DNA of 23,414 nucleotides from a virus. Taxonomy: Duplodnaviria; Heunggongvirae; Uroviricota; Caudoviricetes. Location of the stretch: the IMG/VR virus record IMGVR_UViG_2534682236_000019. The stretch is one strand, 5' to 3'. Made by a program: the position numbers and the translations under genes. Numbering within the stretch: the first letter of the stretch is position 1; every line of letters starts with the position of its first letter. The notes beneath the pieces were generated by a model. That model saw only the letters and a list, made by a program, of their open reading frames with translations. It was not told the origin of the DNA and searched no databases. Below, piece by piece: positions 722 through 18,774 of the stretch.

Positions 722-736
722 TTTAAGGAGTCTGTC

Positions 737-1326: not shown

Positions 1327-1367
1327 TATTGCACCAGTAAATCTTAACCACCGATAAGGAGCAAATT

Positions 1368-2431: not shown

Positions 2432-2524
2432 TATTACCGGGTCTCACGGTCAGTGATGAACGTGATGTTGCCAGCTCCCGACCTTTACTCCCTCTCATTT
2501 ATTCACATTACAAGGATTTCACTC

Positions 2525-3004
2525 ATGAAAATCGCTTCTCAGAACACAACTGCTCTTTCTTCAGCCACAGCACCAGGGAGTGACCAGTCCCGACTTGTTG
2601 CCACCATAGTCCCTGATGAACAGCGCATCAGCTTCTGGCCGCAGCATTTTGGCCTCATTCCACAGTGGGTGACCCTGGAGCCCCGTGTCTTCGGCTGGAT
2701 GGACCGTCTTTGCGAAGACTACTGCGGTGGTATCTGGAATCTGTACACCCTGAACAACGGCGGGGCATTTATGGTACCCGAACCGGATGACGATGATGAC
2801 GAAACATGGGTACTGTTCAATGCCATGAACGGTAACCGCGCTGAAATGAGCCCGGAAGCCGCCGGCATTGCCGCCTGTCTGATGGCGTACAGCCATCACG
2901 CCTGTCGTACAGAGAATTATGCCATGACAGTTCATTATTACCGGCTGCGGGATTATGCCCTGCAGCATCCGGAATGCAGCGCCATTATGCGCATCATCGA
3001 CTGA
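2525..3004 (+). CDS. Antirestriction protein, ArdB/KlcA family (YfjX/YafX-like)
   Basis: Motifs WPQHFG..PQW.TLEPR.FGWMDRLC.DYCGGIW.LYTL.NGGAFM.PE and HYYRLRDYALQHPE..AIMRIID, characteristic of this family. Internal ATG at 2525 chosen over the upstream ATG. Confidence 0.8.
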   Translation: MKIASQNTTALSSATAPGSDQSRLVATIVPDEQRISFWPQHFGLIPQWVTLEPRVFGWMDRLCEDYCGGIWNLYTLNNGGAFMVPEPDDDDDETWVLFNAMNGNRAEMSPEAAGIAACLMAYSHHACRTENYAMTVHYYRLRDYALQHPECSAIMRIID

Positions 3005-3019
3005 ATGGAGGCAGGGACA

Positions 3020-3496
3020 ATGCAGCAGCTTTCCTTTCTGCCCGGAGAAATGACGCCCGGCGAGCGCAGTCTCATTCTGCGGGCCCTGAAAACCCTGGAC
3101 CGCCATCTTCATGAACCCGGCGTGGCCTTCACCTCCACCCGTGCGGCACGGGAATGGCTGATTCTGAACATGGCAGGACTGGAGCGTGAAGAATTCCGGG
3201 TGCTGTATCTGAACAACCAGAATCAGATGATTGCCGGTGAAACCCTCTTCACCGGCACCATTAACCGCACGGAAGTCCATCCCCGGGAAGTGATTAAACG
3301 CGCCCTGTACCACAATGCCGCTGCCGTGGTACTGGCACACAATCACCCGTCCGGTGAAGTCACACCCAGCAAGGCAGACCGCCTTATCACGGAACGTCTG
3401 GTACAGGCACTGGCCCTGGTGGATATCCGGGTGCCGGACCATCTGATAGTCGGTGGCAGCCAGGTTTTCTCCTTTGCGGAACACGGTCTGCTTTAA
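3020..3496 (+). CDS. RadC-like JAB/MPN-domain protein (YeeS/YkfG/YfjY-like)
   Basis: JAMM metal-binding motif HNHPSGEVTPSKAD. RBS GGAGG 8 nt before ATG 3020. Conserved position after the antirestriction gene in CP4-type islands. Confidence 0.85.
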   Translation: MQQLSFLPGEMTPGERSLILRALKTLDRHLHEPGVAFTSTRAAREWLILNMAGLEREEFRVLYLNNQNQMIAGETLFTGTINRTEVHPREVIKRALYHNAAAVVLAHNHPSGEVTPSKADRLITERLVQALALVDIRVPDHLIVGGSQVFSFAEHGLL

Positions 3497-3582
3497 CCCG
3501 TCACCGTCACAATCACCTTCATATCACTTCAGTTTCTCTTTCTCAGCTGTTTCTTACTTTCACATTCAGGAGGACTATTCTC

Positions 3583-3804
3583 ATGAAAATCATCACCCGT
3601 GGTGAAGCCATGCGTATTCACCGTCAGCATCCTGCATCCCGTCTTTTTCCGTTCTGTACCGGTAAATACCGCTGGCACGGTAGCACGGATACATATACCG
3701 GTCGTGAAGTACAGGATATTCCCGGTGTGCTGGCCGTGTTTGCTGAACGCCGTAAGGACAGTTTTGGCCCGTATGTCCGGCTGATGAGCGTCACCCTGAA
3801 CTGA
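3583..3804 (+). CDS. DUF987-family small protein (YeeT-like), 73 aa
   Basis: Strong RBS (AGGAGG). Size and position immediately upstream of the antitoxin gene match the YeeT/YkfH family. Confidence 0.75.
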   Translation: MKIITRGEAMRIHRQHPASRLFPFCTGKYRWHGSTDTYTGREVQDIPGVLAVFAERRKDSFGPYVRLMSVTLN

Positions 3805-3878
3805 ATCAGGGCATTCAGATGAGCAGCATTATCGCCACCACCGGACCATTCTTAACTGATTTCTGTGAGGATTTTATC

Positions 3879-4256
3879 GTGTCAGACGCACTCTCCGGGA
3901 CAATGCTTCCCGACGACAATCACGACCGCCCCTGGTGGGGGCTGCCCTGCACCGTGACGCCCTGTTTCGGGGCCCGACTGGTGCAGGAGGGTAACCGGTT
4001 GCATTACCTTGCCGACCGCGCCGGTATCAGAGGCAGGTTCAGCGACGCGGATGCGTACCACCTGGACCAGGCCTTTCCGCTGCTGATGAAACAACTGGAA
4101 CTCATGCTCACCGGCGGTGAACTGAATCCCCGCCATCAGCATACCGTCACACTGTATGCGAAAGGGCTGACCTGCGAAGCCGACACCCTCGGCTCCTGTG
4201 GTTACGTTTATCTGGCGGTTTATCCGACACCGGCAGCGCCCGCAACCACCGTATAA
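3879..4256 (+). CDS. cbeA: Type IV antitoxin, CbeA/YeeU family (paralogues YfjZ and YafW cannot be distinguished here)
   Basis: Core LPDDNHDRPWWGLPCTVTPCFGARLVQEGNRLHYLADRAGI...LDQAFPLLMKQLELML matches the family. GTG start at 3879 with GAGG 8 nt upstream fits the family length (about 125 aa) better than the 145-aa ATG ORF from 3819. Confidence 0.8.
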   Translation: MSDALSGTMLPDDNHDRPWWGLPCTVTPCFGARLVQEGNRLHYLADRAGIRGRFSDADAYHLDQAFPLLMKQLELMLTGGELNPRHQHTVTLYAKGLTCEADTLGSCGYVYLAVYPTPAAPATTV

Positions 4257-4302
4257 CACCGGATATCTCTCCTTTATCACCACCTGTTACAGAGAACTTA
4301 AG

Positions 4303-4680
4303 ATGAATACATTACCCGACACTCACGTACGGGAGGCATCGGGCTGCCCGTCTCCCGTCACCATCTGGCAGACACTGCTCACCCGACTGCTGGACCAGCA
4401 CTATGGTCTCACGCTGAATGACACACCGTTCGCTGATGAACGTGTGATTGAGCAGCATATTGAGGCAGGGATTTCACTGTGTGATGCGGTGAACTTTCTC
4501 GTTGAAAAATACGCGCTGGTACGAACCGACCAGCCGGGATTCAGCGCAGGAGCCCCGTCGCAGTTAATCAACAGCATTGATATTCTCCGGGCCCGCCGGG
4601 CAACCGGCCTGATGACCCGCAGCCACTACAGAACGGTAAATGACATTACCCTGGGTAAACGCACGGAGGCAAAACGATGA
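4303..4680 (+). CDS. cbtA: Type IV toxin, CbtA/YeeV family (cytoskeleton-inhibiting toxin)
   Basis: WQ.LL.RLLDQHYGLTLNDTPFADERVIEQHIEAGISLCDAVNFLVEKYALVRTDQPGF matches the family. Internal ATG at 4303 gives about 125 aa. Directly downstream of the antitoxin. Confidence 0.8.
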   Translation: MNTLPDTHVREASGCPSPVTIWQTLLTRLLDQHYGLTLNDTPFADERVIEQHIEAGISLCDAVNFLVEKYALVRTDQPGFSAGAPSQLINSIDILRARRATGLMTRSHYRTVNDITLGKRTEAKR

Positions 4681-5165
4681 AACTGGCCCTGACGCTGGAA
4701 GCTGACAGCGTTAACGTACAGGCACTGAACATGGGGCGAATTGTCGTTGACGTCGATGGTGTTGAGCTTGCCGAACTGATTAACGTGGTCTGCGATAACG
4801 GCTACTCCCTTCGTGTTGTTGATAAATCTGACCGGACCTCAACAGACAGCATCCCCCCCTCAGTTGCCCTGAGCGGCATACGCTGCAGCACCGCACATAT
4901 CACGGAAACGGACAACGCCTGGCTGTACTCGCTGTCACACCAGACTAATGACGACGGGGAATCAGAATGGATTCATTTTACCGGCAGTGGCTATCTGTTA
5001 CGTACCGATGCGTGGTCGTACCCGGTTCTGCGGCTTAAACGCCTGGGGGTGTCAAAAACCTTCCGTCGTCTGGTTGTCACACTTACCCGACGTTATGGCG
5101 TCAGTCTCATTCATCTGGATGCCTGCGCTGAATGCCTGCCGGGTTTACCCACTTTCAACTGGTAA
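4677..5165 (+). CDS. YeeW-like island protein (162 aa)
   Basis: ATGA overlap with the toxin stop. Conserved position after cbtA in CP4-type islands. Confidence 0.7.
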   Translation: MKLALTLEADSVNVQALNMGRIVVDVDGVELAELINVVCDNGYSLRVVDKSDRTSTDSIPPSVALSGIRCSTAHITETDNAWLYSLSHQTNDDGESEWIHFTGSGYLLRTDAWSYPVLRLKRLGVSKTFRRLVVTLTRRYGVSLIHLDACAECLPGLPTFNW

Positions 5166-5176
5166 CCAGGAGCAAC

Positions 5177-5374
5177 ATGAAATCATTAACCACGGAAAGC
5201 GCTCTGGATATTCTGATTGCGTGGCTGCAGGACAATATCGACTGCGAATCGGGAATTATCTTTGACAACGATGAAGATAAAACGGATTCGGCAGCACTGT
5301 TGCCCTGTATTGAACAGGCCAGGGAGGATATCCGTACCCTGCGCCAGCTGCAGCTTCCAGACCAGAACCGGTGA
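5177..5374 (+). CDS. Small acidic hypothetical protein (66 aa, YpjJ-like position)
   Basis: Internal ATG at 5177 preceded by AGGAGC. Followed by a terminator. Confidence 0.5.
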   Translation: MKSLTTESALDILIAWLQDNIDCESGIIFDNDEDKTDSAALLPCIEQAREDIRTLRQLQLPDQNR

Positions 5375-5403
5375 GTCTCATTCACCACTCTTCATTCCAC
5401 TGA

Positions 5404-5437
5404 CGCCAGCCTGAGCAGGGCTGGCGTTTTCATTTAT
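5404..5437 (+). terminator. Rho-independent terminator closing the island operon
   Basis: Stem CGCCAGCC / GGCTGGCG (8 bp), 6-nt loop, then TTTT. Confidence 0.65.
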
Positions 5438-5456
5438 TTGTAAAAAGGAAATGTAA

Positions 5457-6876
5457 TGAACGCATCCCAACATTATGAAATGAGCCGCTCGGGGATTAAG
5501 TAGATGAGTGTGGAACCCCGCAGATTTCCGGCATCATCGTGCCCAACGGGATGCGTTTCGCTCCCAACAGACTGGAGGATCCACACCATGAAATATATCC
5601 CTGTCGGTGTTGATATTGCAAAACATCTTATGCAGGTGCATTTCGTTGATGAACATACCGGAGAGATTATCGATAAGCAGGTTAAGCGTGAGAAATTCCT
5701 TGAATATTTCAGCAACCGTGAACCCTGCCTTATCGGCATGGAGGCCTGTGGGGGTTCTCATCACTGGGCGCGTGAGCTTCAGAAACTGGGACATAAGGTC
5801 AGATTACTCAAAGGCCGGTTCGTCAAAGCATTCGTGATGGGAAATAAAAACGATGTGATGGACGCCCGAGCCATCTGGCTGGCGGTTCAGCAGCCGGTAA
5901 AATCCGTCGCCGTTAAAAGCGAGGAGCAACAGGCTACGCTGGGGTTACACCGAATGCGCCAGCAACTGGTGAAGTTCAGGACAGCACAAATAAACGCGCT
6001 TCACGGTCTCTTGCTGGAATTTGGTGAAACGACGCACAAGGGGCGTGCTGCTTTGGCGAAGGAGGTGCCGGAAGCCCTGGAGCGTCTGAAGGAGCGGCTA
6101 CCGCTCTACCTGATAAACATGCTGGATGAACAATATCAGCGAATTACTGAACTTGATGAACATCTTGACCACATTGAGAAGCAGCTGCAGGCGGTAGCCA
6201 GACAGAATGAAACCTGTCAGCGGTTACTGAACATCCCAGGCGTGGGGCCGTTAATCGCCACCGCTGCCGTTGCCACGATGGGAGACGCCTCCGCCTTTAA
6301 GTCGGGACGGGAATTCGCCGCGTTTATCGGTCTGGTGCCCAGACAGACAGGCTCAGGAGGAAAAATCCGCCTGCTGGGAATAAGCAAACGTGGTGATAAA
6401 TATCTGCGAACCCTGTTTATTCATGGTGCAAGGGCGGCAGCATTACTGACCAAAGAACCTGGTCCATGGATAACCGAACTGAAAAAGCGTCGTCCGGCCA
6501 GCGTGGCAATCGTCGCAATGGCAAACAAGCTGGCGCGAACGGTGTGGGCAATAGCCGCTCACGGACGTAAATACGACAAAAATCATGTCAGTATCAGGCC
6601 TGATTAATCGCTGATACCGATAAACATAAACTCTTTACAAAAGGGTGAATGCAGAAAGGTTGCTCTGGCAGCCAGCGTGATGACAAAGACAGGTAAGACC
6701 GTGACTCACTAAACCTGGATAATCGATTGGGCCTAAAGCCCGCTGAGGAAATGAGGCGTGAGTCGGCGAATTACATAGGGGCTCGCAGCTTCCGGGCTGC
6801 AATAAAGCCGGATATAAAGCTGCAACCTACCGTCGATGTCAGAACAATGGATGCCTTTGCAAACGGGATGCGTTCA
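5457..6876 (+). mobile_element. IS110-family insertion sequence (about 1.42 kb; IS1111-like size and layout), boundaries approximate
   Basis: A single DEDD-type transposase ORF flanked by a perfect 12-13 bp inverted repeat (TGAACGCATCCC at 5457-5468; GGGATGCGTTCA at 6865-6876). Non-coding arms of about 130 bp (5') and 270 bp (3'). Inserted between the island terminator and the next gene. Confidence 0.6.
5588..6607 (+). CDS. IS110-family transposase (DEDD RuvC-like N-terminal domain plus C-terminal transposase domain), 339 aa
   Basis: N-terminal IPVGVDIAKH...GMEACGG...MDARAI and C-terminal GVGPLIATA...FAAFIGLVPRQTGSGGK...ISKRGDKYLR are hallmark IS110/IS116/IS902-type motifs. ATG 5588 preceded by GGAGG. 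Confidence 0.85.
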   Translation: MKYIPVGVDIAKHLMQVHFVDEHTGEIIDKQVKREKFLEYFSNREPCLIGMEACGGSHHWARELQKLGHKVRLLKGRFVKAFVMGNKNDVMDARAIWLAVQQPVKSVAVKSEEQQATLGLHRMRQQLVKFRTAQINALHGLLLEFGETTHKGRAALAKEVPEALERLKERLPLYLINMLDEQYQRITELDEHLDHIEKQLQAVARQNETCQRLLNIPGVGPLIATAAVATMGDASAFKSGREFAAFIGLVPRQTGSGGKIRLLGISKRGDKYLRTLFIHGARAAALLTKEPGPWITELKKRRPASVAIVAMANKLARTVWAIAAHGRKYDKNHVSIRPD

Positions 6877-6889
6877 TATAATATCGATT

Positions 6890-7738
6890 ATGTCTGATAT
6901 CACAGCCTCCCGTCCGAAAGTGGTCAACGGGCATACGGACGTTATCTGCTCCACCTCAGTCAGCCACATTCTGGCTGTACGAAAGAGTACACTGCTGCAA
7001 ATCGACACACTTATCCGGCAACTGGCTGAAATCTCAGCAATGACGGAAAGCATTGGCGGCAAAACCGCCCGGGACTGGGCCATGAAACAGGATTTTCGCT
7101 GCGGCTGCTGGCTGATGGATAAAACGGAAACCGCAATGAAAGCCATCACCCGCAATCTTGACCGCGAAATCTGGCGTGACCTGATGCAACGTTCCGGGAT
7201 GCTGTCATTAATGGATGTGCAGGCCCGTGATACATGGTACAGCTCACTGGAGTACGATAATTTTCCGGAAATCAGTGAAGCGAACATTCTGAGCACATTT
7301 GAACAACTGCACCAGAACAAAGATGAAGTGTTTGAGCGAGGGGTGATCAACGTCTTCAGAGGGCTGAACTGGAATTACAAAACCAATTGCCCCTGTAAAT
7401 TTGGCAGTAAAATTATCGTCAACAATCTGGTGAGGTGGGACCTGTGGGGATTGCATCTTATCACCGGGCAACAGGCAGATCGACTTGCCGACCTGGAAAG
7501 AATGCTGCACCTGTTCAGCGGCAAACCGATCCCCGACAGCCGGGAAAATATTATTATTCGGCTGGATGATCACATCCGCTCCGTTCAGGGCAAAGCCTGC
7601 TATGAAGATGAGATGTTCAGCATCAGATACTTTAAGAAGGGCTCCGCGCATATCACGTTCAGAAAACCAGAACTGGTTGATCGGCTAAATGACATCATTG
7701 CGAAGTATTATCCAGAAATAATCCCATACAATATCTAA
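6890..7738 (+). CDS. Conserved island hypothetical protein (282 aa; possibly DUF4942-like), integrase-adjacent
   Basis: Long ORF with plausible codon usage. Start chosen at ATG 6890, just beyond the IS right inverted repeat; the upstream part of the listed ORF would be IS-derived. Family name is from memory only. Confidence 0.55.
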   Translation: MSDITASRPKVVNGHTDVICSTSVSHILAVRKSTLLQIDTLIRQLAEISAMTESIGGKTARDWAMKQDFRCGCWLMDKTETAMKAITRNLDREIWRDLMQRSGMLSLMDVQARDTWYSSLEYDNFPEISEANILSTFEQLHQNKDEVFERGVINVFRGLNWNYKTNCPCKFGSKIIVNNLVRWDLWGLHLITGQQADRLADLERMLHLFSGKPIPDSRENIIIRLDDHIRSVQGKACYEDEMFSIRYFKKGSAHITFRKPELVDRLNDIIAKYYPEIIPYNI

Positions 7739-7830
7739 TAAAACTAATCATTTCTTGTTGTGACTGATTTAGTTGAACCATACTGCATGGTCGAGTAGAC
7801 AGGGTATCTCAGACCATGCATGTATTTTTA

Positions 7831-9150
7831 TCATCTGTTCCCAAATTTTATATGAATAACATTATCCGGAGCATTCTGCTGCACAGTAATGACGTTATTC
7901 ATAATAAAATTCCCCCATTCTATAAATAATTTTTTTAATTTTTCAGCTTGTTGTCCGACTTGATATGTTCGTATTAAACGGTCTTTGGGTACATGATTTA
8001 ACAGTAACTCTATTAGGCGCTCTGGAGCATCAAGGTATTCAGCGCATCCAGTCGCAACACTTCTACGCAGATCATGAGGAGAAAATGGAGTAAGTTCGGC
8101 TAGATACTTAGAGCGAACCCTTTCTAACGCGCGAGTCAGAGCGTCATTTGTGATGGGAAAGCCAGGTTTGCTAGTAGAACCAAAAACATATGCACCTTCA
8201 GTGAATTCACGTTGTGTTTTTATTAAAGAAAGCATATACGGATGTAAAGTAACAATATGGCTTTTCCCATTTTTAGTGGCTGGTATGGTCCAACGCTCTC
8301 CATTAATTTGATCCCAGCGCATTTGTGCCGCTTCAGAGCGGCGCACTCCTGTGAAAATAATCAAACGGAGTGCATTTGCGACAGAATGAGATAATACCAC
8401 ACTAGAGGAAATTCCATAGCCACCAGATGCAATGGAGCCTCCTCCAACAGTAGCATCATCCAAAGCCTTCCATAGCATCCGGAGTTCATTCTCAGGAAGC
8501 CATCGCTCGCGAGGTTTATTCATCGATGCACCAAACATTGCTGGTTTGAGCAGTCGTGCTGGGTTATGCTCAAGCATACCCTGTAAGTTGGCATGATCAA
8601 GAGTCATATTTAGAATAATTAATCCTTTACGAACTGCTTCAGAACTGGTTTTTCTTACATTACTGAGATGTTCAAAAATAACGCTTTTGGTAAGTTCGTC
8701 AATGCAAAGGTTTCCTAATGCTTTTTCAAGGTGGCGGTGATAAGTCCCTTCATAATCTGCAAGGGTTCTGGTGCTAATTGGTTTACTTGTCTTTCTGAAT
8801 TCTATCCAATCTTTCCATAATTCAGAGTAAATAATCATTTGTTCATTTTTTTGTTTTTCATTTTTTCTAATATGACGAGGATCTATACCTTTTCTTACTA
8901 ATTCAATTGCATCCGCATGAGCTTTACGAGCTTGAGCTAATCCCATGGCAGGGTAACTACCTAGTGTTAATTTAGCTGGCTTTTGAGCTATTCGATAACG
9001 ATAAATCCAGCTTTTATTGTCGCTACCATAACGAACGCGTATAAAGAGTCCTCCCCCAGCTTTAGATTTTACAGCAAATAAGATTTCTTTTTCTTCTTTA
9101 GTAACGGTCAATGAAGCCAATTGTCTGTCTTGTGTAATAGTAAAAGTCAT
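7831..9150 (-). CDS. P4-type tyrosine integrase (IntA/IntF-like), 439 aa
   Basis: N-terminal arm-binding-like region and C-terminal catalytic region with R...HDLRRS...Y residues (FSPHDLRRSVATG, LLNHV, RTYQ). ATG at 9150 (M13 of the listed ORF) has an AAGG RBS. AT-rich relative to neighbours. Confidence 0.85.
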   Translation of the reverse strand: MTFTITQDRQLASLTVTKEEKEILFAVKSKAGGGLFIRVRYGSDNKSWIYRYRIAQKPAKLTLGSYPAMGLAQARKAHADAIELVRKGIDPRHIRKNEKQKNEQMIIYSELWKDWIEFRKTSKPISTRTLADYEGTYHRHLEKALGNLCIDELTKSVIFEHLSNVRKTSSEAVRKGLIILNMTLDHANLQGMLEHNPARLLKPAMFGASMNKPRERWLPENELRMLWKALDDATVGGGSIASGGYGISSSVVLSHSVANALRLIIFTGVRRSEAAQMRWDQINGERWTIPATKNGKSHIVTLHPYMLSLIKTQREFTEGAYVFGSTSKPGFPITNDALTRALERVRSKYLAELTPFSPHDLRRSVATGCAEYLDAPERLIELLLNHVPKDRLIRTYQVGQQAEKLKKLFIEWGNFIMNNVITVQQNAPDNVIHIKFGNR

Positions 9151-9315
9151 ATCTTCAGCCTTTTGGGTACACAGTGGGGTACACATTTAACATGATATCA
9201 TCAGAAACAAGGCGAAACATCTTGATACTGCATTTGTGTGTATTTTATTGATTTTTATACAATTTTTATTGTATACGGAAACGGCTGTGAACATCTTGAA
9301 TCACTGGTCTCGCTA

Positions 9316-9361
9316 ATTCGTAATGCGAAGGTCGTAGGTTCGACTCCTATTATCGGCACCA
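9316..9361 (+). other. 3' 46 nt of a tRNA-Thr gene (thrW-type), ending in CCA: partial copy serving as att core
   Basis: ATTCGTAATGCGAAGGTCGTAGGTTCGACTCCTATTATCGGCACCA matches the anticodon-loop-to-3'-end portion of E. coli tRNA-Thr (CGU) as I recall it. The upstream sequence does not continue the tRNA, so this is a fragment, not a gene. Confidence 0.8.
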
Positions 9362-9375
9362 TTAAAATCAATAAG

Positions 9376-10539
9376 TTACACATCATTAGTACCTTCCTTA
9401 TTTTTTGACTGGGACAAATTTGGGACCGATGGGTTCAGGATCGAGTCTATTTGCCGTGCGTGTTCGGTAAGGTGATTAGGTGCAAGGTGAGCATATCGAC
9501 GAACCATTTCGATAGACTCCCAGCCTCCCATTTCCTGTAACACTGACAACGGGACTCCGGCTTGAACCAGCCAACTTGCCCAGGTGTGTCTCAAGTCGTG
9601 AAATCTGAAATCATCAATACCAGCCCGTCTCAGCGCCGCTTTCCAGGCTGTGTTTGCGTCATACCGCATCTTCCTTACTGTTGGCGCTTTCGTTCCGTCT
9701 GGTTTGGTACAGCTTTCCTTGTACACAAATACCCAACGGTGATGATTCCCGATTTGTTTTTTCAATACGCGACATGCAGTATCATTCAGCGCAACGCCAA
9801 TTGCGCGGTTTGATTTACTCTCTTCCGGGTTTATCCATGCCACCCGGCGCTGCATATCTATTTGTTGCCATTCAAGGTTGATGATGTTCGAGCGTCTTAA
9901 GCCTGTTGCCAGTGCAAATTCAACAACAGACTTTAATGGCTCCGGACATTCATCAATCAGCCTTTGTGCTTCATGGGGCTCCAGCCAGCGGATCCGTTTA
10001 TTCTTTGGTTGAGGCACTTTAATAATTGGTGCCTTATCCAGCATTTTCCATTCACGCTCTGCGGCTCTTAGTAGGGCCTTTATAAATGAAAGATGCGTAG
10101 CCTTCGTTGCAACGGACGCTGGTTTTGGCGTGTATTCTGGAACAGGTTTCCCTTTTTTTCTGCATGCTTCTGCCCTGAGTTTCCAGTTTTCCTCATGACG
10201 CCGGTTCGTCATTTTCTGCATTGCTGAATAAATTTTTGATTCAGTAATGTCTCTTAGTTGCATTCCTGCGAAATGTTGAAGCCAGAATCCGATCCGGCTT
10301 TTGTCATCGTCCAGCGATTTTTTATGTGCTTTCTCTTCAAGCCACCTGACACACGCTTCCTCGAACGTTATATCAGGTATTTCACCAAGTTTGCTGACCC
10401 GCCATGCTTCAGCCTTTAGCTTGTCATGGAGTTCTGTCGCCTGCCTTTTGTCCTTTGTTCCAAGAGACTGTTTAAATCTTTTACCGTTCGGCAATGTGAA
10501 ACTGGCGTACCATATTTCACCTCTGCGGAAGAGTGACAT
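9376..10539 (-). CDS. int: Lambdoid tyrosine integrase, P22 Int-like, 387 aa
   Basis: [34 protein letters not shown]... and C-terminal [17 protein letters not shown]...RRYAHL closely resemble P22 Int, which uses thrW as its att site. Its 3' end lies 15 bp from the tRNA fragment. Confidence 0.9.
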
Positions 10540-10766
10540 TTTCTTTCCTCTGTTATGCCATCACCCGCGCTCACCTGGACAGTATGCAGCGGAGACTGAA
10601 GAGCCGCAATGCAGGCTTGTCGTGTTGTGAGGTAAGGAGATTTATTCTTAGTGGGATCTTTGCGTGTTGCCTGAAGACGCCCTGTGCGTATCCAGTTAAT
10701 GGCAGTCGGTCTGGATATCTTGAGAAAATGACAGGCCTCATCGAGTGTGAGGCTGTATGGCTCCAT
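10416..10766 (-). CDS. xis: Excisionase (P22 Xis-like), 116 aa
   Basis: [50 protein letters not shown] matches the P22-type Xis. Start at the internal ATG overlapping the upstream stop (TAATG). C-terminus overlaps the int start as in P22. Confidence 0.8.
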
Positions 10767-11071
10767 TATTTCACCTCTTGTTGTGACATTGTTGAAAAAT
10801 GGATACCTGCTCGTTGCTGCCAGACGATCCAACCGAGAGTCATATCCCATGCCATGTATTCGTTATCGCCGTTTTTTGCTCTCCGACGATCTACTAAGTC
10901 ACCGAAACGCTTTTCCATGAATAATTCATAAGCTTCGCGTTCATCTGGTTCTACTTCCAGAGATAGGAGTGCGATTTCATAAGCACGGCGCTCAATATCG
11001 TCTCGCACGTCAAGGCTGCTGATACGCTCTTTAATTTCTTTAATCAGTTCTTTGTCGGTAAAAGTGGTCAT
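10766..11071 (-). CDS. Hypothetical early-left phage protein (101 aa, acidic)
   Basis: Translationally coupled on both sides (TAATG overlaps). Coding-like composition. Confidence 0.6.
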   Translation of the reverse strand: MTTFTDKELIKEIKERISSLDVRDDIERRAYEIALLSLEVEPDEREAYELFMEKRFGDLVDRRRAKNGDNEYMAWDMTLGWIVWQQRAGIHFSTMSQQEVK

Positions 11072-11433
11072 TATGCTCCAGCCTCCGGTGCTTTTGGCAT
11101 TACTGCCCAGTGAGTGATATTGACGTTTTCAAGGTCCCCGACCTGAAATGTCCACTGCCATTCTCCGGTTTCTTTTTGTCCCCAGGTGTACCAGAGAGAA
11201 CGCCAGCCAATTAGCCAGCCTTCTCCGTTAGCATCGAATAACAAAACACTTTCATTTGCTGGTGGCAGTTCAGTTGACACTGGTATTACTTTGTTTTCCT
11301 GTGCTGCACATTTAGCTTCAAGCGCATCGAATTTACGCACCAGGTATTCAGCATCTGTTTCATTCACTTTCAGATCTCGCGGTACACATCTCCCACGAAG
11401 AAACCCTTCCATTTCGAAAACATTCATGCGCAT
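11071..11433 (-). CDS. Hypothetical phage protein, Trp-rich (possibly DUF551-like), 120 aa
   Basis: W-rich C-terminal segment GWLIGWRSLWYTWGQKETGEWQW. Coupled to flanking genes. Confidence 0.55.
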   Translation of the reverse strand: MRMNVFEMEGFLRGRCVPRDLKVNETDAEYLVRKFDALEAKCAAQENKVIPVSTELPPANESVLLFDANGEGWLIGWRSLWYTWGQKETGEWQWTFQVGDLENVNITHWAVMPKAPEAGA

Positions 11434-11960
11434 TTGCGTAACTCCGATAACTCGTTAAAACGTTCCATAAACATCCCGTAGGCATGGCCCGGTGCCTGTG
11501 GAATCACTTTGAACATCTCTGTTGCCGGGATACCTTCCAGTACAGGCCAGAAAGAGCCATCATCAAGCCCGAGATCGCGGCGTTCGGTTGCCAGCATAAT
11601 GAGATCGGCATATTTCACTGGCGTGCTCATAACAGGAGGTAACCCGTATTTCTCACGTATTACGGCGTCTATTTTTTCTTCCATCCGTTTATAGTCAGGA
11701 AGAAGTCGTTTCAGTGGTGCGGGGATGTCCTGGCAATATGCTTCTGTTGCATCATGCATTAAAGCTTCAAAAGCAAATTCCTGTGGCACCAGCTGGCTGC
11801 AAAGCACCGCATGTTGGGCGACACTGTAGAAGTGTGAAAGATGTCCTGCAAAGCGACAGATATTTGAAAGGGAAACCGCGATATCGTTAATAACGATGTC
11901 GTCTTTATTTATCCTGTCATAATAAAAATGCTTCCCGGAAAAAGTTTTAATAAATGACAT
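11424..11960 (-). CDS. HD-domain phosphohydrolase (YfdR-like 5'-deoxynucleotidase)
   Basis: HD motif in ...FEALMHDATEAYCQDIP... plus upstream His cluster (RFAGHLSHFYSVAQH). ATG at 11960 has a GGAG RBS; the listed ORF begins at an upstream GTG without an RBS. Confidence 0.75.
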   Translation of the reverse strand: MSFIKTFSGKHFYYDRINKDDIVINDIAVSLSNICRFAGHLSHFYSVAQHAVLCSQLVPQEFAFEALMHDATEAYCQDIPAPLKRLLPDYKRMEEKIDAVIREKYGLPPVMSTPVKYADLIMLATERRDLGLDDGSFWPVLEGIPATEMFKVIPQAPGHAYGMFMERFNELSELRKCA

Positions 11961-12473
11961 TTTGTTCTCCACGTATATGCGCTGCACCGCGCTGAATTCG
12001 GGTAAAAGGAAGCCCTCACCGTCCGGCGATTATTGAGTCAATTACATTTCCATAAATGCCCCCGTAGGGGCGGTTAGTTTCTCCACAAAACAGAGAAGAA
12101 CACCTGCGGTGGCAGCCGCCCGGATGGATTGGGTTATGAGCCCGTCGTCCGGTGATGCTCTTCTCTGTTTTGTAAAAAGGACGGTACCAGCCGGAAGCAA
12201 GGGTACAAGCTGGTACCGCTAAGACTACACACAGCATAAAGTTGTGGTGCCGGGTGCCTCCCGGTGCCTGGCGAAGGTTGCACACCAGGCGGGTGGGTAT
12301 CCACAGAAGGTCGACTGTCAGCCTCAACCTTAACCCGCGTGCGCTGAGCCGCATTCACCACAACGCTAAGGATTCTCTCTGGTTGAAAATACTTAGCTGT
12401 TATGTGCCTGTCTTTTCACCACTTCAGGCTCGGTGGTATCCTTTTAAGCCCGTATACATAAAAGGAAAATCAA

Positions 12474-12719
12474 ATGACTTTTGATGAAAAAGAACTTGAT
12501 AATGCAATTAATAAAATCATCGTAACGTCGCTCTTTTCCTGTCTCAGCGACACTCAGCAAAAACAGTTCTACGAATCGGCTTTCAACATGATCGAGCGTT
12601 GTTGTTTCTGCGATGCCGACGAGTTACCTGAAAAAATCAGGAAACAGTTGGCTGATGCTCTTCGAGTGCGACTTTCTGACCAATTTTCTGAAATGTACTC
12701 TCCGAATTTGGACAAATAG
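12474..12719 (+). CDS. Small hypothetical protein (81 aa) in an AT-rich insert; reality uncertain
   Basis: Strong RBS (AAGGAAAA, 5 nt). AT-rich. Its 3' end overlaps a convergent ORF by 83 nt, so at most one of the two may be real. Confidence 0.4.
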   Translation: MTFDEKELDNAINKIIVTSLFSCLSDTQQKQFYESAFNMIERCCFCDADELPEKIRKQLADALRVRLSDQFSEMYSPNLDK

Positions 12720-12912
12720 AAAAAGGCCATTTCCATTCAGGGTCTGATGGAAAGACTTCAGCCTGTTCTAAAGCACGGCGTAAAGAGAACACAACTCCAG
12801 CCATAATCTGATGTTTCCCATTGGTCCAGCTATCGCCGCTCTGATCTACAGGGGCGGCTATGTCGTATGACCAAACGACTTCACAGTTATTGTTTAAAAT
12901 CTGGACTTTCAT
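12637..12912 (-). CDS. Small hypothetical protein (91 aa), first ORF leftward of the putative pL/OL; not N-like
   Basis: Internal ATG with AGGTG 6 nt upstream. AT-rich. Not Arg-rich, so not an N-type antiterminator. Confidence 0.4.
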   Translation of the reverse strand: MKVQILNNNCEVVWSYDIAAPVDQSGDSWTNGKHQIMAGVVFSLRRALEQAEVFPSDPEWKWPFSICPNSESTFQKIGQKVALEEHQPTVS

Positions 12913-13119
12913 TTCATACACCTGCTTTAACATGAGTGCCTAGTGGCACAACATGACTCAACGAATCATCCTGGACTTCATATGCCCCAGGCGGCTACTT
13001 CGTGGGCGTCCTGCCTGTTCGTTTTTGACATTTACTGACTGCTTACGACACATGCACCGTGTTGCAACCAGATTTTGTTGTAATCCTGTAGTTGGTCTGG
13101 AATAAAAGATAAAATTAAA

Positions 13120-13156
13120 TTGCGAGATATGCAAGTGGTATTTGCGAGATATGCAA
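13120..13156 (-). promoter_or_regulatory. Putative OL operators / leftward early promoter: two copies of TTGCGAGATATGCAA spaced 22 bp apart
   Basis: A perfect 15-bp direct repeat with dyad half-sites TTGC/GCAA. The same motif family (TTGCGTGATAAGCAA) occurs between cI and cro. On the minus strand the repeats overlap TTGCAT -35-like hexamers. Confidence 0.55.
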
Positions 13157-13165
13157 ATTTATAGG

Positions 13166-13190
13166 TAATAAAAAGCCACCTTTCGGTGGC
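13166..13190 (-). terminator. Rho-independent terminator downstream of cI
   Basis: On the minus strand: GCCACC GAAA GGTGGC followed by TTTTTATT, immediately 3' of the repressor stop. Confidence 0.65.
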
Positions 13191-13210
13191 CGATGGATGG
13201 GATATTGAGG

Positions 13211-13903
13211 TTAATTATGTCTCTTAAGGGTTTGCGACTGACTGATTAAGACCTTTCCAAAGACCATGAATCGGTGTTCGTTTTCGCTAGTAATTCCCCA
13301 TTCACGGTAAATCTGGTTATCAGAAATCACCAGCAGTTTGTCAGGAATCATTTGAAGTCTTTTAACGTATATTTTGTCATCAAAACCAAAGACATATATA
13401 CCATCACCATCAAACTGATTGATGCTGACATCAACGAAGATGAGATCTCCTGGCTCAATGGTTGGACACATACTGTCCCCACGAACGTTGATAACTTTGA
13501 TGTGATTGGCTGGTCGTCCGCCGAACATTGATACAGCATTATCAGTTCTGTATTCGATGGCATGAATCACATCAATGACATCACCGCCCTGGATAAGGCC
13601 ATTTCCCGCACTGGCACTGATATCCAGCATTTCAATACGGAACACATCCTTCACCTGCGCAACATCCTCATTATTACTGTTTTTATATACAGTATTACTT
13701 TTGTGGGCAGAGGTAAAGAGATCAGCAATATCAACACCTAAGCTCTTGGCAATATTACTCAGTGTTTGTTCGGTAAATTGTTTTTGCTTACCCGTTTCTA
13801 AGCGCGAGATGTTCGCCGCATCTACTCCTATCGCTTCAGCGAGATCGGCGATTTTCATGTTCTTCGCTTGGCGAAGTTGTCTGACTCGGTTTCCTATGTT
13901 CAT
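13211..13903 (-). CDS. CI-type prophage repressor: N-terminal XRE-family HTH plus C-terminal S24 (LexA-like) autopeptidase domain, 230 aa
   Basis: HTH segment KIADLAEAIGVDAANISRLETGKQ. C-terminal RGDSMCPTIEPGDLIFVD...YVKRL carries the Ser-Lys dyad arrangement of S24 peptidases. Divergent from cro across an operator region. Confidence 0.9.
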   Translation of the reverse strand: MNIGNRVRQLRQAKNMKIADLAEAIGVDAANISRLETGKQKQFTEQTLSNIAKSLGVDIADLFTSAHKSNTVYKNSNNEDVAQVKDVFRIEMLDISASAGNGLIQGGDVIDVIHAIEYRTDNAVSMFGGRPANHIKVINVRGDSMCPTIEPGDLIFVDVSINQFDGDGIYVFGFDDKIYVKRLQMIPDKLLVISDNQIYREWGITSENEHRFMVFGKVLISQSQTLKRHN

Positions 13904-14000
13904 GCGTTTATTACATTTCTTTATTGCGTGATAAGCAAATCAACTTGCGCAAAATAATTGCGTGAAATAACATGCATAACGCGCAATATTTGGAGGGCGT
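13904..14000. promoter_or_regulatory. OR region: divergent pRM/pR promoters with operator TTGCGTGATAAGCAA and related TTGCG/CGCAA half-sites
   Basis: 97-bp intergenic region between divergent repressor genes. 15-bp operator at 13924-13938 matches the OL repeats at 12 of 15 positions. Further TTGCGC/GCGCAA dyads at 13945-13986. Rightward TTGCGC-N17-TAACAT promoter-like hexamers before cro. Confidence 0.6.
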
Positions 14001-14261
14001 ATGCAATCACCATTACGAAATGTGCGTAAGGCGCATGGTTTCACTTTGCAGCATGTTGCTGCGGGTGTTCAAGTCAATCCAGCGACGTTGAGTCGTATTG
14101 AGAGGCTGGAGCAGATTCCATCTATCGAGCTTGCAGAACGTTTAGCCAATTTTTTTAAGGGTGAAGTCAGCGAAATGCAGATTCTTTATCCGGCACGTTT
14201 TCAATCTAGCCAAAACCAGAATGGGTTTAAACCACAGGAACAGGAGGTGAACCGTGGGTAA
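14001..14261 (+). CDS. Cro-like HTH (XRE family) regulator, 86 aa
   Basis: RBS GGAGG. HTH LQHVAAGVQVNPATLSRIERLEQIPS. Divergent from cI. Confidence 0.8.
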   Translation: MQSPLRNVRKAHGFTLQHVAAGVQVNPATLSRIERLEQIPSIELAERLANFFKGEVSEMQILYPARFQSSQNQNGFKPQEQEVNRG

Positions 14262-14805
14262 GCATCACTGGAAAGTAGAAAAACAGCCTGAGTGGTACGT
14301 GAAAGCTGTCAGAAAAACTATCGCAGCGTTGCCGGGGGGGTACGCTGAAGCTGCTGACTGGCTGGATGTAACAGAGAACGCATTATTTAACCGCCTTCGT
14401 GCCGATGGCGATCAGATTTTCCCGCTGGGATGGGCAATGATTTTGCAACGTGCTGGTGGAACTCACTTCATTGCTGACGCTGTGGCGCAGTCTGCAAATG
14501 GCGTCTTTGTGTCTCTTCCTGATGTCGAGGATGTGGACAACGCCGATATCAACCAACGCCTGCTGGAGGTCATTGAACAGATCGGCAGTTATTCAAAACA
14601 GATTCGTTCAGCAATTGAAGACGGTGTAGTGGAACCGCATGAGAAGACAGCAATTAACGACGAGCTGTACCTCTCAATTTCGAAGCTGCAGGAGCATGCA
14701 GCACTGGTCTACAAAATTTTTTGCATTTCAGAAAGTAATGACGCCCGCGAGTGTGCAGCTCCGGGCGCCGTGGCGTGTCGTGACTGTGGAGAAACTAACG
14801 CATGA
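14254..14805 (+). CDS. CII-like regulatory protein (large CP76/186-CII-type family), 183 aa, GTG start
   Basis: GTG 14254 with AGGAGG 6 nt upstream. Position after cro. Family assignment from memory of lambdoid prophage gene order, moderate certainty. Confidence 0.6.
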
Positions 14806-15140
14806 ACAGTTTAACAACACACTACCGTCGCTCGCAACTGATTGCACTTCCTGTACCGGGTGGAAAAGCGAAGGTGGAGTATTGCTATGCAGTGAATGTA
14901 CCAGGTGACAGGGAAATTGTAACCCACAGCTTTGCAGAGTGGGCTGTGGGTGATTTCAACAGGCAAAAGGAGACAGTCCTTTGCGACAAGTTAACCGCTG
15001 GTTCAAAGATCACTACGGAGTGCCCGTCAGAGTCATTCGTTGGGAACCGGAAACACAACGGGTTATCTACCTCCGCGAAGGCTATGAGCATGAGTGCTTC
15101 AGCCCGCTCGAACAGTTTCGTCGTAAATTCAGGGAAATAG
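14802..15140 (+). CDS. Hypothetical protein (112 aa); coding status ambiguous
   Basis: ATGA-coupled to the upstream gene, but the C-terminal third is low-complexity Ser/Ala-rich. A better-looking 59-codon ORF runs in another frame at 14981-15160. Confidence 0.35.
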
Positions 15141-15149
15141 AGGTCGGTC

Positions 15150-16091
15150 ATGAGCACTAAATTAACCGGCTATGTATGGGATGGTTGCGCTGCGTCAGGC
15201 ATGAAGTTATCCAGCGTGGCAATTATGGCCCGCCTGGCTGATTTCAGTAATGACGAAGGTGTGTGCTGGCCATCAATTGAAACCATTGCCCGCCAGATTG
15301 GCGCGGGGATGAGCACCGTCAGAACGGCTATCGCACGGCTGGAAGCAGAAGGCTGGTTAACGCGTAAGGCGCGTCGCCAGGGTAACCGCAATGCGTCGAA
15401 TGTTTATCAGCTTAACGTTGCGAAGCTTCAGGCAGCGGCATTTTCTCAACTGTCAGATTCTGACCCGTCAAAATCTGACGCATCAAAATCTGACCCGTCA
15501 AAATTTGATGCGTCGAAATCTGGCAAAAAAGCGGGTTTTCACCCGTCAGAATCTGGCGGGGATCCGTCAGTAAAATCAAAACATGATCCGTCAGATAAAA
15601 AACCTTCTCGTCCGGACGCTTCGCAACCGGACACGCAGACGGATGAACAGGATTTTTTAACTCGCCATCCTGATGCGGTTGTATTCAGCCCTAAAAAGCG
15701 CCAGTGGGGGACGCAGGATGATTTGACCTGTGCACAGTGGCTCTGGAAAAAAATCATCGCCCTGTACGAGCATGCCGCCGAATGTGACGGCGAGGTGGTT
15801 CGTCCCAAAGAACCGAACTGGACAGCCTGGGCAAACGAAATTCGCCTGATGTGTGTGCAGGATGGTCGTACTCATAAACAAATCTGCGAGATGTACAGCC
15901 GCGTCAGTCGCGATCCGTTCTGGTGCCGTAACGTGCTCAGCCCGTCGAAGCTGCGGGAAAAATGGGATGAGCTTTCCCTGCGCTTATCGCCGTCCGTCAG
16001 CACGTACACCGAAAAACGCGAGGACCCGTACTTCAAAGCCAGTTACGACAACGTGGACTACAGCCAGATCCCGGCAGGATTCAGGGGGTGA
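15150..16091 (+). CDS. Replication initiator (lambda O-like role) with N-terminal HTH and internal origin iterons, 313 aa
   Basis: N-terminal segment SIETIARQIGAGMSTVRTAIARLEAEGWL is HTH-like. Central Ser/Asp/Lys repeat linker is encoded by DNA iterons. Position after cII. RBS GAGGT. Confidence 0.75.
   Translation: MSTKLTGYVWDGCAASGMKLSSVAIMARLADFSNDEGVCWPSIETIARQIGAGMSTVRTAIARLEAEGWLTRKARRQGNRNASNVYQLNVAKLQAAAFSQLSDSDPSKSDASKSDPSKFDASKSGKKAGFHPSESGGDPSVKSKHDPSDKKPSRPDASQPDTQTDEQDFLTRHPDAVVFSPKKRQWGTQDDLTCAQWLWKKIIALYEHAAECDGEVVRPKEPNWTAWANEIRLMCVQDGRTHKQICEMYSRVSRDPFWCRNVLSPSKLREKWDELSLRLSPSVSTYTEKREDPYFKASYDNVDYSQIPAGFRG
15453..15606. repeat. Origin-like iteron array inside the initiator gene: 5 tandem copies (about 15-bp period) of TCAAAATCTGAC(C/G)CG plus three degenerate CCGTCAGA copies, followed by an A-rich tract
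   Basis: Directly visible: ...tctgacccgtcaaaatctgacgcatcaaaatctgacccgtcaaaatttgatgcgtcgaaatctggc... then ccgtcagaatctgg, ccgtcagtaaaatc, ccgtcagataaaaaacc. Same arrangement as the ori inside lambda O. Confidence 0.7.
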
Positions 16092-16093
16092 GC

Positions 16094-16582
16094 ATGAGTC
16101 TTTTGAATGACGTTCAGAAATTCATTGAAGCCCATCCGGGCTGTACTTCCGGAGACATTGCGGATGCTTTTGCAGGTTACTCACGGCAGCGCGTTCTGCA
16201 GTCTGCAAGCAAGTTACGTCAGAGTGGGCGTGTGGCTCACCGTTGTGAAGGGGATACACGCAGACATTTCCCGCGCCTGACTGAGAGAGCGCAGGAGCCG
16301 GAACCACAACCAGTTCGTGAAACCAGACCTGTGCGCAATTTCTATGTCGGCACTAACGATCCCCGGGTGATTTTGTGCCTGACCCGCCAGGCTGAAGAAC
16401 TGGAGTCCAGGGGCTTATACCGTCGTGCTGCAACGGTGTGGATGGCGGCATTCCGTGAAAGCCACTCCCAGCCAGAACGAAACAATTTTCTGGCGCGTCG
16501 TGAGCGGTGCTTACGGAAAAGCAGCAAGCGCGCTGTATCGGGTGAAGAGTGGTATCTGTCAGGGAATTACGTGGGGGCTTAA
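16094..16582 (+). CDS. ANR/PerC-like transcriptional regulator-like protein, 162 aa
   Basis: C-terminal AEELESRGLYRRAATVWMAAFRESHSQPERNNFLARRERC resembles the PerC/ANR family motif. ATG 16094 with AGGGGG upstream. Stop overlaps the next start (TAATG). Confidence 0.55.
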   Translation: MSLLNDVQKFIEAHPGCTSGDIADAFAGYSRQRVLQSASKLRQSGRVAHRCEGDTRRHFPRLTERAQEPEPQPVRETRPVRNFYVGTNDPRVILCLTRQAEELESRGLYRRAATVWMAAFRESHSQPERNNFLARRERCLRKSSKRAVSGEEWYLSGNYVGA

Positions 16583-17235
16583 TGAGTAATAAATATTGCC
16601 AGGCGCTGGTGGAGCTGCGGAACAAACCAGCCCATGAACTGAAGGAAGTGGGCGATCAGTGGCGCACGCCGGACAACATTTTCTGGGGAATTAACACCCT
16701 GTTTGGCCCGTTTGTTCTGGATCTGTTCACTGACGGTGATAACGCCAAATGTGCCGCTTATTACACTGCGGAAGACAACGCGCTGGCGCATGACTGGTCA
16801 GAACGTCTTGCGGAGCTTAAAGGTGCTGCCTTTGGTAATCCCCCATACAGCCGCGCCAGTCAGCATGAGGGGCAATACATCACCGGCATGCGTTACATCA
16901 TGAAGCATGCCAGTGCCATGCGTGATAAAGGCGGGCGCTATGTTTTCCTGATCAAAGCTGCCACCAGCGAAGTGTGGTGGCCGGAAGATGCAGATCATAT
17001 TGCTTTTATTCGCGGGCGTATTGGTTTTGAACTGCCTGCCTGGTTTATCCCGAAGGATGAGAAGCAGGTGCCGACAGGCGCTTTCTTCGCTGGTGCTATT
17101 GCTGTTTTCGACAAGACCTGGAAGGGACCGGCAATCAGCTACATCGGGCGCTATGAACTTGAGGCATGTGGTGAGGCCTTTCTGGCGCAGGTTCGCCAGC
17201 AGGCAGAAAAACTGGTCAGGGAGATGGCGGCATGA
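16582..17235 (+). CDS. Phage-type DNA N6-adenine methyltransferase (Dam-like), 217 aa
   Basis: Catalytic motif IV GNPPYS, and overall similarity to the phage Dam family. Translationally coupled on both sides. Confidence 0.8.
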   Translation: MSNKYCQALVELRNKPAHELKEVGDQWRTPDNIFWGINTLFGPFVLDLFTDGDNAKCAAYYTAEDNALAHDWSERLAELKGAAFGNPPYSRASQHEGQYITGMRYIMKHASAMRDKGGRYVFLIKAATSEVWWPEDADHIAFIRGRIGFELPAWFIPKDEKQVPTGAFFAGAIAVFDKTWKGPAISYIGRYELEACGEAFLAQVRQQAEKLVREMAA

Positions 17236-17558
17236 CGACGTTAACTCAATGCCAGCAGCAGGTGCTGGATATGCTGATTTCTTATCAGAAAGAACGTGGC
17301 TTCCCGCCAACCAATCAGGAGGTGGCAACCATGCTGGGATACCGTTCAGTGAATGCAGCGGTGGAGCATCTTCGCGCACTGGAGAAAAAAGGCGTCATCA
17401 CGATAAAGCGTGGCGTGGCCCGGGGGATAACGCTTCATACCGCGGTGAAGGACGACGACAGCGAGGCGGTCGGGATTATCCGCGCACTGCTTGCCGGTGA
17501 GGAAAACGCAAGGCTGCGTGCAACCCACTGGTTACATGAGAGGGACCTGAAAGTATGA
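17232..17558 (+). CDS. LexA N-terminal DNA-binding-domain homologue without peptidase domain, 108 aa
   Basis: LTQCQQQVLDMLISYQKERGFPPTNQEVATMLGYRSVNAAVEHLRALEKKGVITIKRGVARGI parallels the LexA winged-HTH domain (LexA: [55 protein letters not shown]). No S24 domain follows. Confidence 0.8.
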   Translation: MTTLTQCQQQVLDMLISYQKERGFPPTNQEVATMLGYRSVNAAVEHLRALEKKGVITIKRGVARGITLHTAVKDDDSEAVGIIRALLAGEENARLRATHWLHERDLKV

Positions 17559-17944: not shown

Positions 17945-17963
17945 TTAAGAGGAGAAACGAAGT

Positions 17964-18773: not shown

Positions 18774-18774
18774 G

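Follow-up and report, generated by a model that had tools for sequence, protein, structure and literature searches.

The segment at positions 9151-9430 of the window (the whole 23,414-nt stretch of DNA that was analysed) is very likely a hybrid attachment site in a tandem array at the tRNA gene thrW, combining the attR of a genomic island with the attL of a prophage that probably came second, entering the distal core of the resident island. As the original prediction had claimed, a single 46-nt fragment of tRNA-Thr is flanked by two integrases of different families, the P4-type Int1 on the left and the P22/SfIV-family Int2 on the right. The further claim that the fragment marks a hybrid junction of tandem elements at one thrW core is borne out by genomes that carry either the island alone or the phage alone, with the breakpoints at the core. 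The main parts of the window are listed below.

1-7738, plus strand: distal cargo of the thrW island, collinear and 99.98% identical with the O22:H8 strain 154 (L002) and with SMN013SH2 (L017)
7831-9150, minus strand: int1, encoding the P4-type tyrosine integrase of the island (Int1, 439 aa), assigned from Pfam domains and the starts of RefSeq homologues
9151-9315, unstranded: island-side arm (P arm of the island attR) with the int1 leader and promoter region, identical in strains 154 and SMN013SH2
9316-9361, plus strand: att core of 46 nt with the exact sequence of thrW positions 31-76, common to the island attR and the prophage attL
9362-9379, plus strand: conserved flank behind the CCA end, a candidate H' site by the IHF consensus
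9376-10539, minus strand: int2, encoding a P22/SfIV-family tyrosine integrase (Int2, 387 aa) and reading towards the core
10416-10850, minus strand: prophage gene for an excisionase-like HTH protein, which agrees with the annotated excisionase of SfIV in 142 of 144 residues
10851-23414, unstranded: early, immunity, replication and lysis regions of a SfII/SfV/SfIV-like prophage, assigned from sequence matches

The left part of the window is the end of a large island. Positions 1-9379 are 99.98% identical to the island end of two strains, with two mismatches to strain 154 and with no mismatches and two gaps to SMN013SH2. In strain 154 the order is proA, intact thrW, the island of 76,984 bp, int1 on the minus strand, the core and yagP'/paoDCBA. 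An insertion between thrW and yagP'/paoD with a repeat of the thrW 3' end beside the integrase is found for this identical island in strain 154 and also in K-12. The island of strain 154 carries genes for an AlpA-like HTH protein, YfjI, a KAP NTPase, a CDI system, Tn10/sul2/strAB, a GTPase, dynamin and a CbtA module. This island of about 77 kb is seen at thrW in STEC strains, where the core is followed either by the chromosomal yagP'/paoD or by another P4-type element; in SMN013SH2 a plus-strand gene for another P4-type integrase comes next. The RefSeq annotation of strains 154 and SMN013SH2 names the genes within 1-7738 as DUF932, antirestriction, RadC/JAB, DUF987, YeeU/CbeA antitoxin, CbtA toxin, DUF5983, DUF957, an IS110-family IS (about 5504-6607) and DUF4942.

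The open reading frame of int1 extends over 7831-9186, and RefSeq homologues begin at the equivalent of 9150, which gives a gene of 1320 nt. Its product contains the Pfam domains Arm-DNA-bind_3 (PF13356), Phage_int_M (PF22022) and Phage_integrase (PF00589), the architecture of P4-type integrases, and both the translation and the alignment show the active-site motifs GVRRSE, HDLRRS and LLNH...RTY. Against the NCBIfam model PRK09692 the protein reaches 79.9 bits, the cutoff being 434. The original prediction had named CP4-6-type islands as users of thrW. For this island the label is correct as to the chromosomal site and the geometry, which the K-12 annotation presents as intF on the minus strand, core and yagP. 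It is not correct in the sense of orthology: the 24% identity between Int1 and the K-12 IntF of CP4-6 rules out Int1 as an IntF orthologue, and the arm DNA is unrelated as well. Judged by sequence comparison, Int1 is an integrase of the PAI III536 type. Of 5426 complete E. coli genomes, 196-202 have the int1 gene together with its arm, strain 536 among them. Relatives in the phage collection share at most 25% identity, the best being integrases of Stx phages, so that no phage known from this collection is the source of Int1. The genome-contig search returned a 23%-identity match from Bacteroidota as its sole result. In the usual layout of P4-type elements, the integrase gene lies downstream of the tRNA gene and is co-oriented with it, as in P4/leuX and CP4-57/ssrA. 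The int1 gene departs from this layout: it is encoded on the other strand, beside attR and upstream of the tRNA fragment, with the same geometry as intF in K-12.

The right part of the window belongs to a P22-like prophage. Int2 has the same amino-acid sequence (100% identity) as the integrase of Shigella phage SfIV, its identity to that of P22 is 89.9%, and it matches PF00589 with E = 3e-48. The 46-bp core identical to thrW lies right downstream of int2 and the xis gene lies upstream of it, the arrangement of the P22/SfV-family module. Many O157:H7 genomes contain a prophage with 100% identity to the window over 14.1 kb (9316-23414), and the match starts exactly at 9316. In O157:H7 this prophage abuts an intact thrW beside proA. 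The prophage aligns with phage SfII at 76% coverage and 97.9% identity. Integrases of the Int2 type are present at a coverage of at least 80% in 1102 of the complete E. coli genomes, mostly directly on thrW. The use of thrW by P22-type phages, also part of the earlier claim, agrees with the 46-bp thrW core described for SfIV-type phages (PMC3851460). The attP of SfIV was reported as 46 bp, and serotype-converting phages other than Sf6 were reported to integrate at thrW (PMC3851460). In our sequence comparison the 46-nt core of the SfIV attP is identical to that of the window, and its right arm is also the same.

The core at 9316-9361 on the plus strand, ATTCGTAATGCGAAGGTCGTAGGTTCGACTCCTATTATCGGCACCA, is an exact match to the last 46 nt of thrW (positions 31-76), the references being the annotated tRNA-Thr(CGU) genes of K-12 (L008, 2872-2947) and O157:H7 (L005, 14971-15046). 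The fragment begins one base 5' of the anticodon loop and runs to the CCA end, and its origin from tRNA-Thr thus holds. A complete tRNA-Thr gene did not emerge on realignment: ARAGORN predicted no intact tRNA gene in the window, and Rfam gave no match to the window at the gathering score and just chance matches to unrelated families at E <= 10. The 30-nt 5' half of thrW has no copy anywhere in the window, and the fragment is preceded by island sequence, as had been noticed before. The 165 nt between position 9150 and the core (9151-9315) show no relation to either the thrW 5' half or the P arm of SfIV. On the other side, 14 nt separate the core from the stop codon of int2; both distances agree with the original description.

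A four-way comparison of the SfIV attP, the O157 attL, the window and the attR of strain 154 places island sequence up to the core and phage sequence from the core onwards. The switch from island to phage falls inside the 46-nt core and its short conserved flank. What each half is, where these breakpoints lie and that the arrangement recurs elsewhere are direct observations. Strains with only one of the two elements are available for both sides: strain 154 and SMN013SH2 have the island without the phage, and O157:H7 has the phage on the intact thrW without the island. The junction thus separates two adjacent elements with their own integrase modules, which for the prophage consists of Int2 and the adjacent Xis, and a 46-nt core lies between them. 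The comparison delimits the two elements, the island ending at 9315/9361 and the prophage starting at 9316/9362. The ends of the array, namely the intact thrW and the right end of the prophage, fall outside the 23.4 kb window.

The hybrid junction type, consisting of the island arm, the core and the 3' end of int2, was detected in 28 of the 5426 complete E. coli genomes; int2 is full in 18 of these and present as a C-terminal remnant in the other 10. The 28 compare with a total of about 196 genomes that have int1. The closest junction match among the complete genomes reaches 97.2%. The exact arm allele of the window occurs in none of the 28, and no record among the 5426 genomes covers at least 80% of the window. 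By these allele comparisons the junction of the window was probably formed independently of the 28 known ones. In CAVP814, which gives the best match to the whole junction, the flanks are rearranged and disrupted by IS, and neither thrW nor a third core was found within ±45 kb of the junction.

The changeover from one perfect match to the other coincides exactly with a repeat, and the exact allele combination is missing from the 5426 complete genomes. Both facts would also fit a chimeric assembly, in which the contig was mis-joined across the repeated core of 46-63 nt and int1 and int2 truly lie apart. Ordinary sequencing reads are longer than a repeat of 46-63 nt, however, the junction of island arm, core and int2 recurs in the 28 independently finished genomes, and the arrangement is the one that site-specific integration predicts. 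A mis-join is therefore highly improbable.

Tyrosine integrases that target tRNA genes cross over in or near the anticodon loop, and the element supplies a replacement 3' half; the pattern was reportedly set out by Williams in 2002. The anticodon loop is where the identity block common to the island and the prophage begins. A hint in support comes from YDC107, whose junction core carries two substitutions, T50G and A64C, that form a base pair in the T stem. This variant core looks like a functional tRNA 3' half donated by an element, which would place the crossover 5' of position 50.

We propose that the island was resident first, in the order proA, thrW, the island of about 77 kb, int1, core and yagP'. 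The P22-family integrase of the phage, together with IHF, would then have recombined the 46-bp attP core with the distal core of the island and not with thrW. Both integrases would use the segment of the tRNA from the anticodon loop to the 3' end, so that either integration would regenerate the tRNA and leave a 3' fragment behind. The resulting junction would serve as attR in the excision of the island and as attL in the excision of the prophage; on this sequence layout, either element could in principle excise alone. Distally, the expected layout is the prophage, the P arm, the core and TTAAAATCAAAGAGTTAC...yagP'. For this junction we infer the integration order, the point of crossover, the IHF and arm-type sites and the present-day competence for excision. 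The half-site of the core to the left of the crossover is island sequence and not the anticodon stem of thrW, and the use of this copy by Int2 is presumed.

The order in which the phage came second is favoured and may be regarded as the probable one. Relatives carrying the island alone are 99.98% identical to the left part of the window, the phage is 100% identical to one that circulates in an unrelated lineage, and a temperate phage is far more mobile than an IS-ridden island of 77 kb. A precedent is the integration of SfI at the attL of a resident SfX, which gave a tandem at thrW by sequential infection (PMC3306764). In the opposite order, the phage would have integrated first at thrW, as in O157:H7, and the island would have followed by the action of Int1 on the regenerated thrW, pushing the phage and a phage-derived copy of the core to the distal side of the island. 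The final sequence would be identical. In such a course each integrase meets a complete thrW with its native left half-site, and a phage alone on thrW is the common state, as the many matches of the type integrase next to tRNA-Thr indicate. Mobility of an island of this kind is also conceivable, PAI III536 being reported to excise and circularise (PMC3202238). Against this stand the size of the island (about 77 kb) and its IS load, with no conjugation genes annotated in the parts viewed, as well as the greater mobility of the phage and the near-identity of the island-only relatives given above. In addition, the distal core of the island has repeatedly been taken by different late-coming elements. 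Arrival of the island after the phage is consequently unlikely.

Integration of the phage into the resident island resembles the SfI/SfX array at thrW (Sun et al. 2011, PMC3306764), in which the elements are likewise arranged head to tail with their own integrases and a copy of the core between them. There, too, the second element entered an att site made by the first, and the two cases agree in integrase family and tRNA target (PMC3306764). Both members of that array are phages, and the incoming one used an attL with the whole tRNA (PMC3306764). In the window, by contrast, one partner is an island of about 77 kb that brings a P4-type integrase, and the two elements share a distal copy of the core without the tRNA.

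The closest counterpart of the island is PAI III536. Over 1485 nt its int1 region and arm share 99.3% DNA identity with the window (NC_008253, 360942-362426), followed by the core at 362427-362472. The geometry of DUF4942 on the plus strand, int1 on the minus strand and core is the same, and the distance from thrW to the core is 68,032 bp. The distal core of PAI III536 is likewise followed by another element, comprising the remnant of an Arm-domain integrase and the vat region. Three integrase modules are found at thrW of strain 536, including an SfX-like integrase that is 56% identical to Int2; this one lies right after thrW, at the proximal end of the island, and not after the distal core. 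PAI III536 carries S fimbriae and salmochelin as virulence cargo. Unlike it, the island of strain 154 carries a CDI system, Tn10 and sul2; the window covers only the last 9 kb or so of the island. PAI III536 is deleted at frequencies of 10^-5 to 10^-6 and forms circular intermediates (PMC3202238), and a P4-like integrase encoded on an island is reported to catalyse the loss of PAIs from strain 536 (PMC3202238). This enzyme is presumably Int1, the only intact P4-type integrase in the parts of PAI III536 that were viewed.

CP4-6 of K-12 occupies the same chromosomal site, with intF on the minus strand, a thrW 3' fragment on the plus strand and then yagP'/paoD. Both CP4-6 and the island contain a CbtA/YeeU-type module, which in CP4-6 has the opposite orientation and lies at the other end of the element. 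CP4-6 further differs in its arm sequence, which is unrelated to that of the island, in the start of the K-12 repeat 3 nt earlier and in having no phage behind it. The attP-int-xis modules of P22, SfV, SfII and SfIV have an identical 46-bp core, an int gene directed towards the core, and the IHF consensus and TGGGAC pairs in the P' arm. The left neighbour alone distinguishes the window from these modules, being the island arm and not the thrW 5' half. O157:H7 has a thrW tandem of its own. In the array of ECP19-598, the same prophage (100% identity over 14.1 kb) is separated from a second element by a copy of the 46-nt core. Here the order is thrW, phage, core and satellite. The P4-like partner has a different integrase of 393 aa in the standard plus orientation, and the satellite carries psu, delta and primase genes.

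The junction is therefore a further instance of the well-known accretion of integrative elements at core repeats of thrW. All of its components, the 46-bp core of SfIV/P22, the PAI III536-type integrase and thrW as a known integration hotspot (PMC7545054), have already been described, and so has tandem integration at thrW. The junction shows with textbook clarity how tRNA genes gather mobile DNA and opens no new biological question. Each integration copies the 3' core of the tRNA and every copy is a new landing pad; with this duplication at each integration, thrW comes to bear strain-specific stacks of islands, satellites and prophages. The practical use lies in the right limits for the island and the prophage and in the proper affiliation of the left integrase.

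The region around the core contains several short motifs that may act as binding sites of the integrases or of host factors.

9165-9173 and 9177-9185, plus strand: tandem GGGTACACA, candidate arm-type sites of Int1, from the repeat search
9216-9225, plus strand: first copy of AACATCTTGA, direct repeat
9290-9299, plus strand: second copy of AACATCTTGA, direct repeat
9237-9258, minus strand: inverted near-copy (19/22) of the flank behind the CCA end, IHF-like, from the inverted-repeat search
9256-9275, unstranded: interrupted palindrome TATACAAT-TTTT-ATTGTATA with a stem of 8 bp, from the inverted-repeat search
9410-9426 (starts at 9410 and 9421), plus strand: TGGGAC twice, within the 3' end of int2 on the P' arm of the phage and shared with P22, candidate arm-type sites of Int2

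The block of GGGTACACA recurs in the same orientation at the left end of the island in strain 154, as TTTGGGTACACA-CAG-GGGGACACA with a spacer of 3 nt, where it lies 54-76 nt downstream of the intact thrW. With such pairs at both ends of the island, the blocks would flank the core in a circular island, like arm-type integrase sites. The sequence AATCAATAAGTTA at 9366-9378 is a perfect match to the IHF consensus WATCAANNNNTTR. This consensus behind the core is kept across five variants, and the differences are confined to its four N positions. These read AGAG in the chromosomal flank, ATTG at the left end of CP4-6 and ATAC in P22, all unlike the window, and TAAG at the left end of the island, identical to the window. 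The reverse complement of 9237-9258, AATCAATAAAATA, has one mismatch to WATCAANNNNTTR. An inverted near-copy of 19/22 was reached in 0 of 200 shuffles, the maximum being 17, and this segment may be a further IHF-like site, across the core from the first. The TGGGAC pair occurs with equal spacing in the P22 sequence (L014), and it may represent P' arm sites for Int2.

The original prediction had pointed to two other features of the leader, a perfect palindrome at 9256-9275 and a duplicated AACATCTTGA, as possible binding sites of an integrase or a host factor. The inverted repeat exists, but it is not perfect, comprising 8+4+8 nt with a TTTT spacer that is not palindromic. The duplication of AACATCTTGA is likewise real, with the second copy at 9290-9299 and not, as had been given, at 9287-9296, a shift of 3 nt. 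When the 165-nt leader was shuffled 500 times with its dinucleotides preserved, direct repeats of 10 nt or more arose in 10 shuffles and hairpin stems of 8 bp or more in 5, so that both features are nominally above chance. Both occupy the stretch from int1 to the core, the expected place of arm sites, and the two copies of AACATCTTGA are invariant in four island alleles, conservation around Int1 being judged from E. coli alleles alone. The palindrome, however, sits in a patch at about 9236-9285 that holds nearly all substitutions between the alleles. Its arms are disrupted in the alleles of CAVP814, YDC107 and 536, by which it was rejected as a conserved site. A AACATCTTGA copy is absent from the other (left) end of the island, and one more copy is present elsewhere in the window. 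Moreover, stronger candidates are at hand: judged by motif recurrence, the GGGTACACA pairs at both ends of the island and the IHF consensus behind the core appear better suited than the palindrome and the AACATCTTGA repeat. A function of the latter two as binding sites of the att site is thus doubtful. A scan of the leader for promoters and terminators gave weak 9/12 matches alone, no more than in shuffles.

The distal core might also constitute a true dual-use att site, chosen by the SfIV-type phage as a secondary attB in the absence of the tRNA and shared by the intasomes of both elements; we assign this only a slight probability. If it were true, two intasomes with one core would affect each other's excision or the expression of int1, and islands would multiply the landing pads of phages and couple their own stability to prophage induction. 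As a secondary attB, the distal core is a copy without the native left half-site. A minor observation concerns the candidate arm motifs of the two unrelated intasomes, TTTGGGTAC and TTTGGGAC, which are oddly alike.

In addition to the window, integrase modules are found at the thrW locus of other E. coli strains. Strain 536 (loci L015 and L016, NC_008253 294319-368426) carries three of them:

Directly after thrW: SfX-like integrase, 56% identical to the prophage integrase int2 of the window
68,032 bp away, at the distal end of PAI III536: the island integrase int1
After the second core: remnant of a P4-type integrase with an Arm domain, followed by the vat autotransporter region

The copies of the 46-nt core also have other occupants. 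The island of SMN013SH2 (L017) is essentially identical to that of the window, with 0 mismatches and 2 gaps over 9.4 kb. In the stretch L017 10486-11911 its distal core is adjoined by a different P4-type integrase (404 aa, plus strand), after which comes a truncated ecp operon. In the O157:H7 strain ECP19-598 (L005 and L006), the intact thrW carries a prophage which is 100% identical to window 9316-23414. This prophage is followed by another 46-nt core copy and then by a P4-like satellite encoding an integrase, psu, an ogr/delta-like gene, an icd-like gene, a primase, and an ABC-three-component defence system.

In CAVP814 (L001 and L004), the prophage adjoining int1 has lambda-like rather than SfV-like head and tail genes. 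IS903B/ISKpn26 interrupt the far end of this prophage, beyond which lies a second island, of the CbtA/Ag43 type and in inverted orientation. Neither thrW nor a third core was found within ±45 kb, which shows that the CAVP814 locus is rearranged.

The core copy of YDC107 (L010) is located at the same junction of the island with an int2 remnant. In the alignment with window 9316-9361 it displays two substitutions, at tRNA positions 50 (T>G) and 64 (A>C). These positions are mutual partners in the T stem, and the change is therefore compensatory, though it lies within a tRNA fragment. Such a compensatory pair suggests that the YDC107 core came from an element that had a variant but functional 3′ half of tRNA-Thr, and that the crossover would have taken place 5′ of position 50.

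Comparison of the island alleles shows that nearly all differences in the leader between int1 and the core are held by a patch of approximately 50 nt (window 9236-9285), with 8-9 substitutions or indels between alleles. The flanks of the patch, about 110 nt leftward and about 90 nt rightward, are invariant. The palindrome at 9256-9275, regarded in the original prediction as a possible integrase or host-factor binding site, falls inside the variable patch.

The features of the window which concern the composition of the island and the candidate arm motifs are the following:

1-7738, plus strand: island cargo genes, part of the island's run from GTPase through CbtA to DUF4942
~5504-6607: IS110-family transposase gene, between the island DUF957 and DUF4942 genes
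7831-9315, minus strand: int1 and its leader
9162-9185: island candidate arm motif, TTTGGGTAC(ACA)
9407-9426: P22-type phage candidate arm motif, (A)TTTGGGAC

The IS110-family insertion is also present at the same place in strains 154 and SMN013SH2. The cargo genes are convergent with int1. In CP4-6 of K-12 the equivalent CbtA module is located on the other strand, at the thrW-proximal end. The G+C content drops from ~50-58% in the island cargo to 38-45% across int1. The module of int1 and its arm may be a mosaic addition and not a part of the original island backbone. The two candidate arm motifs are alike, even though they belong to unrelated integrases; this likeness may be due to chance.
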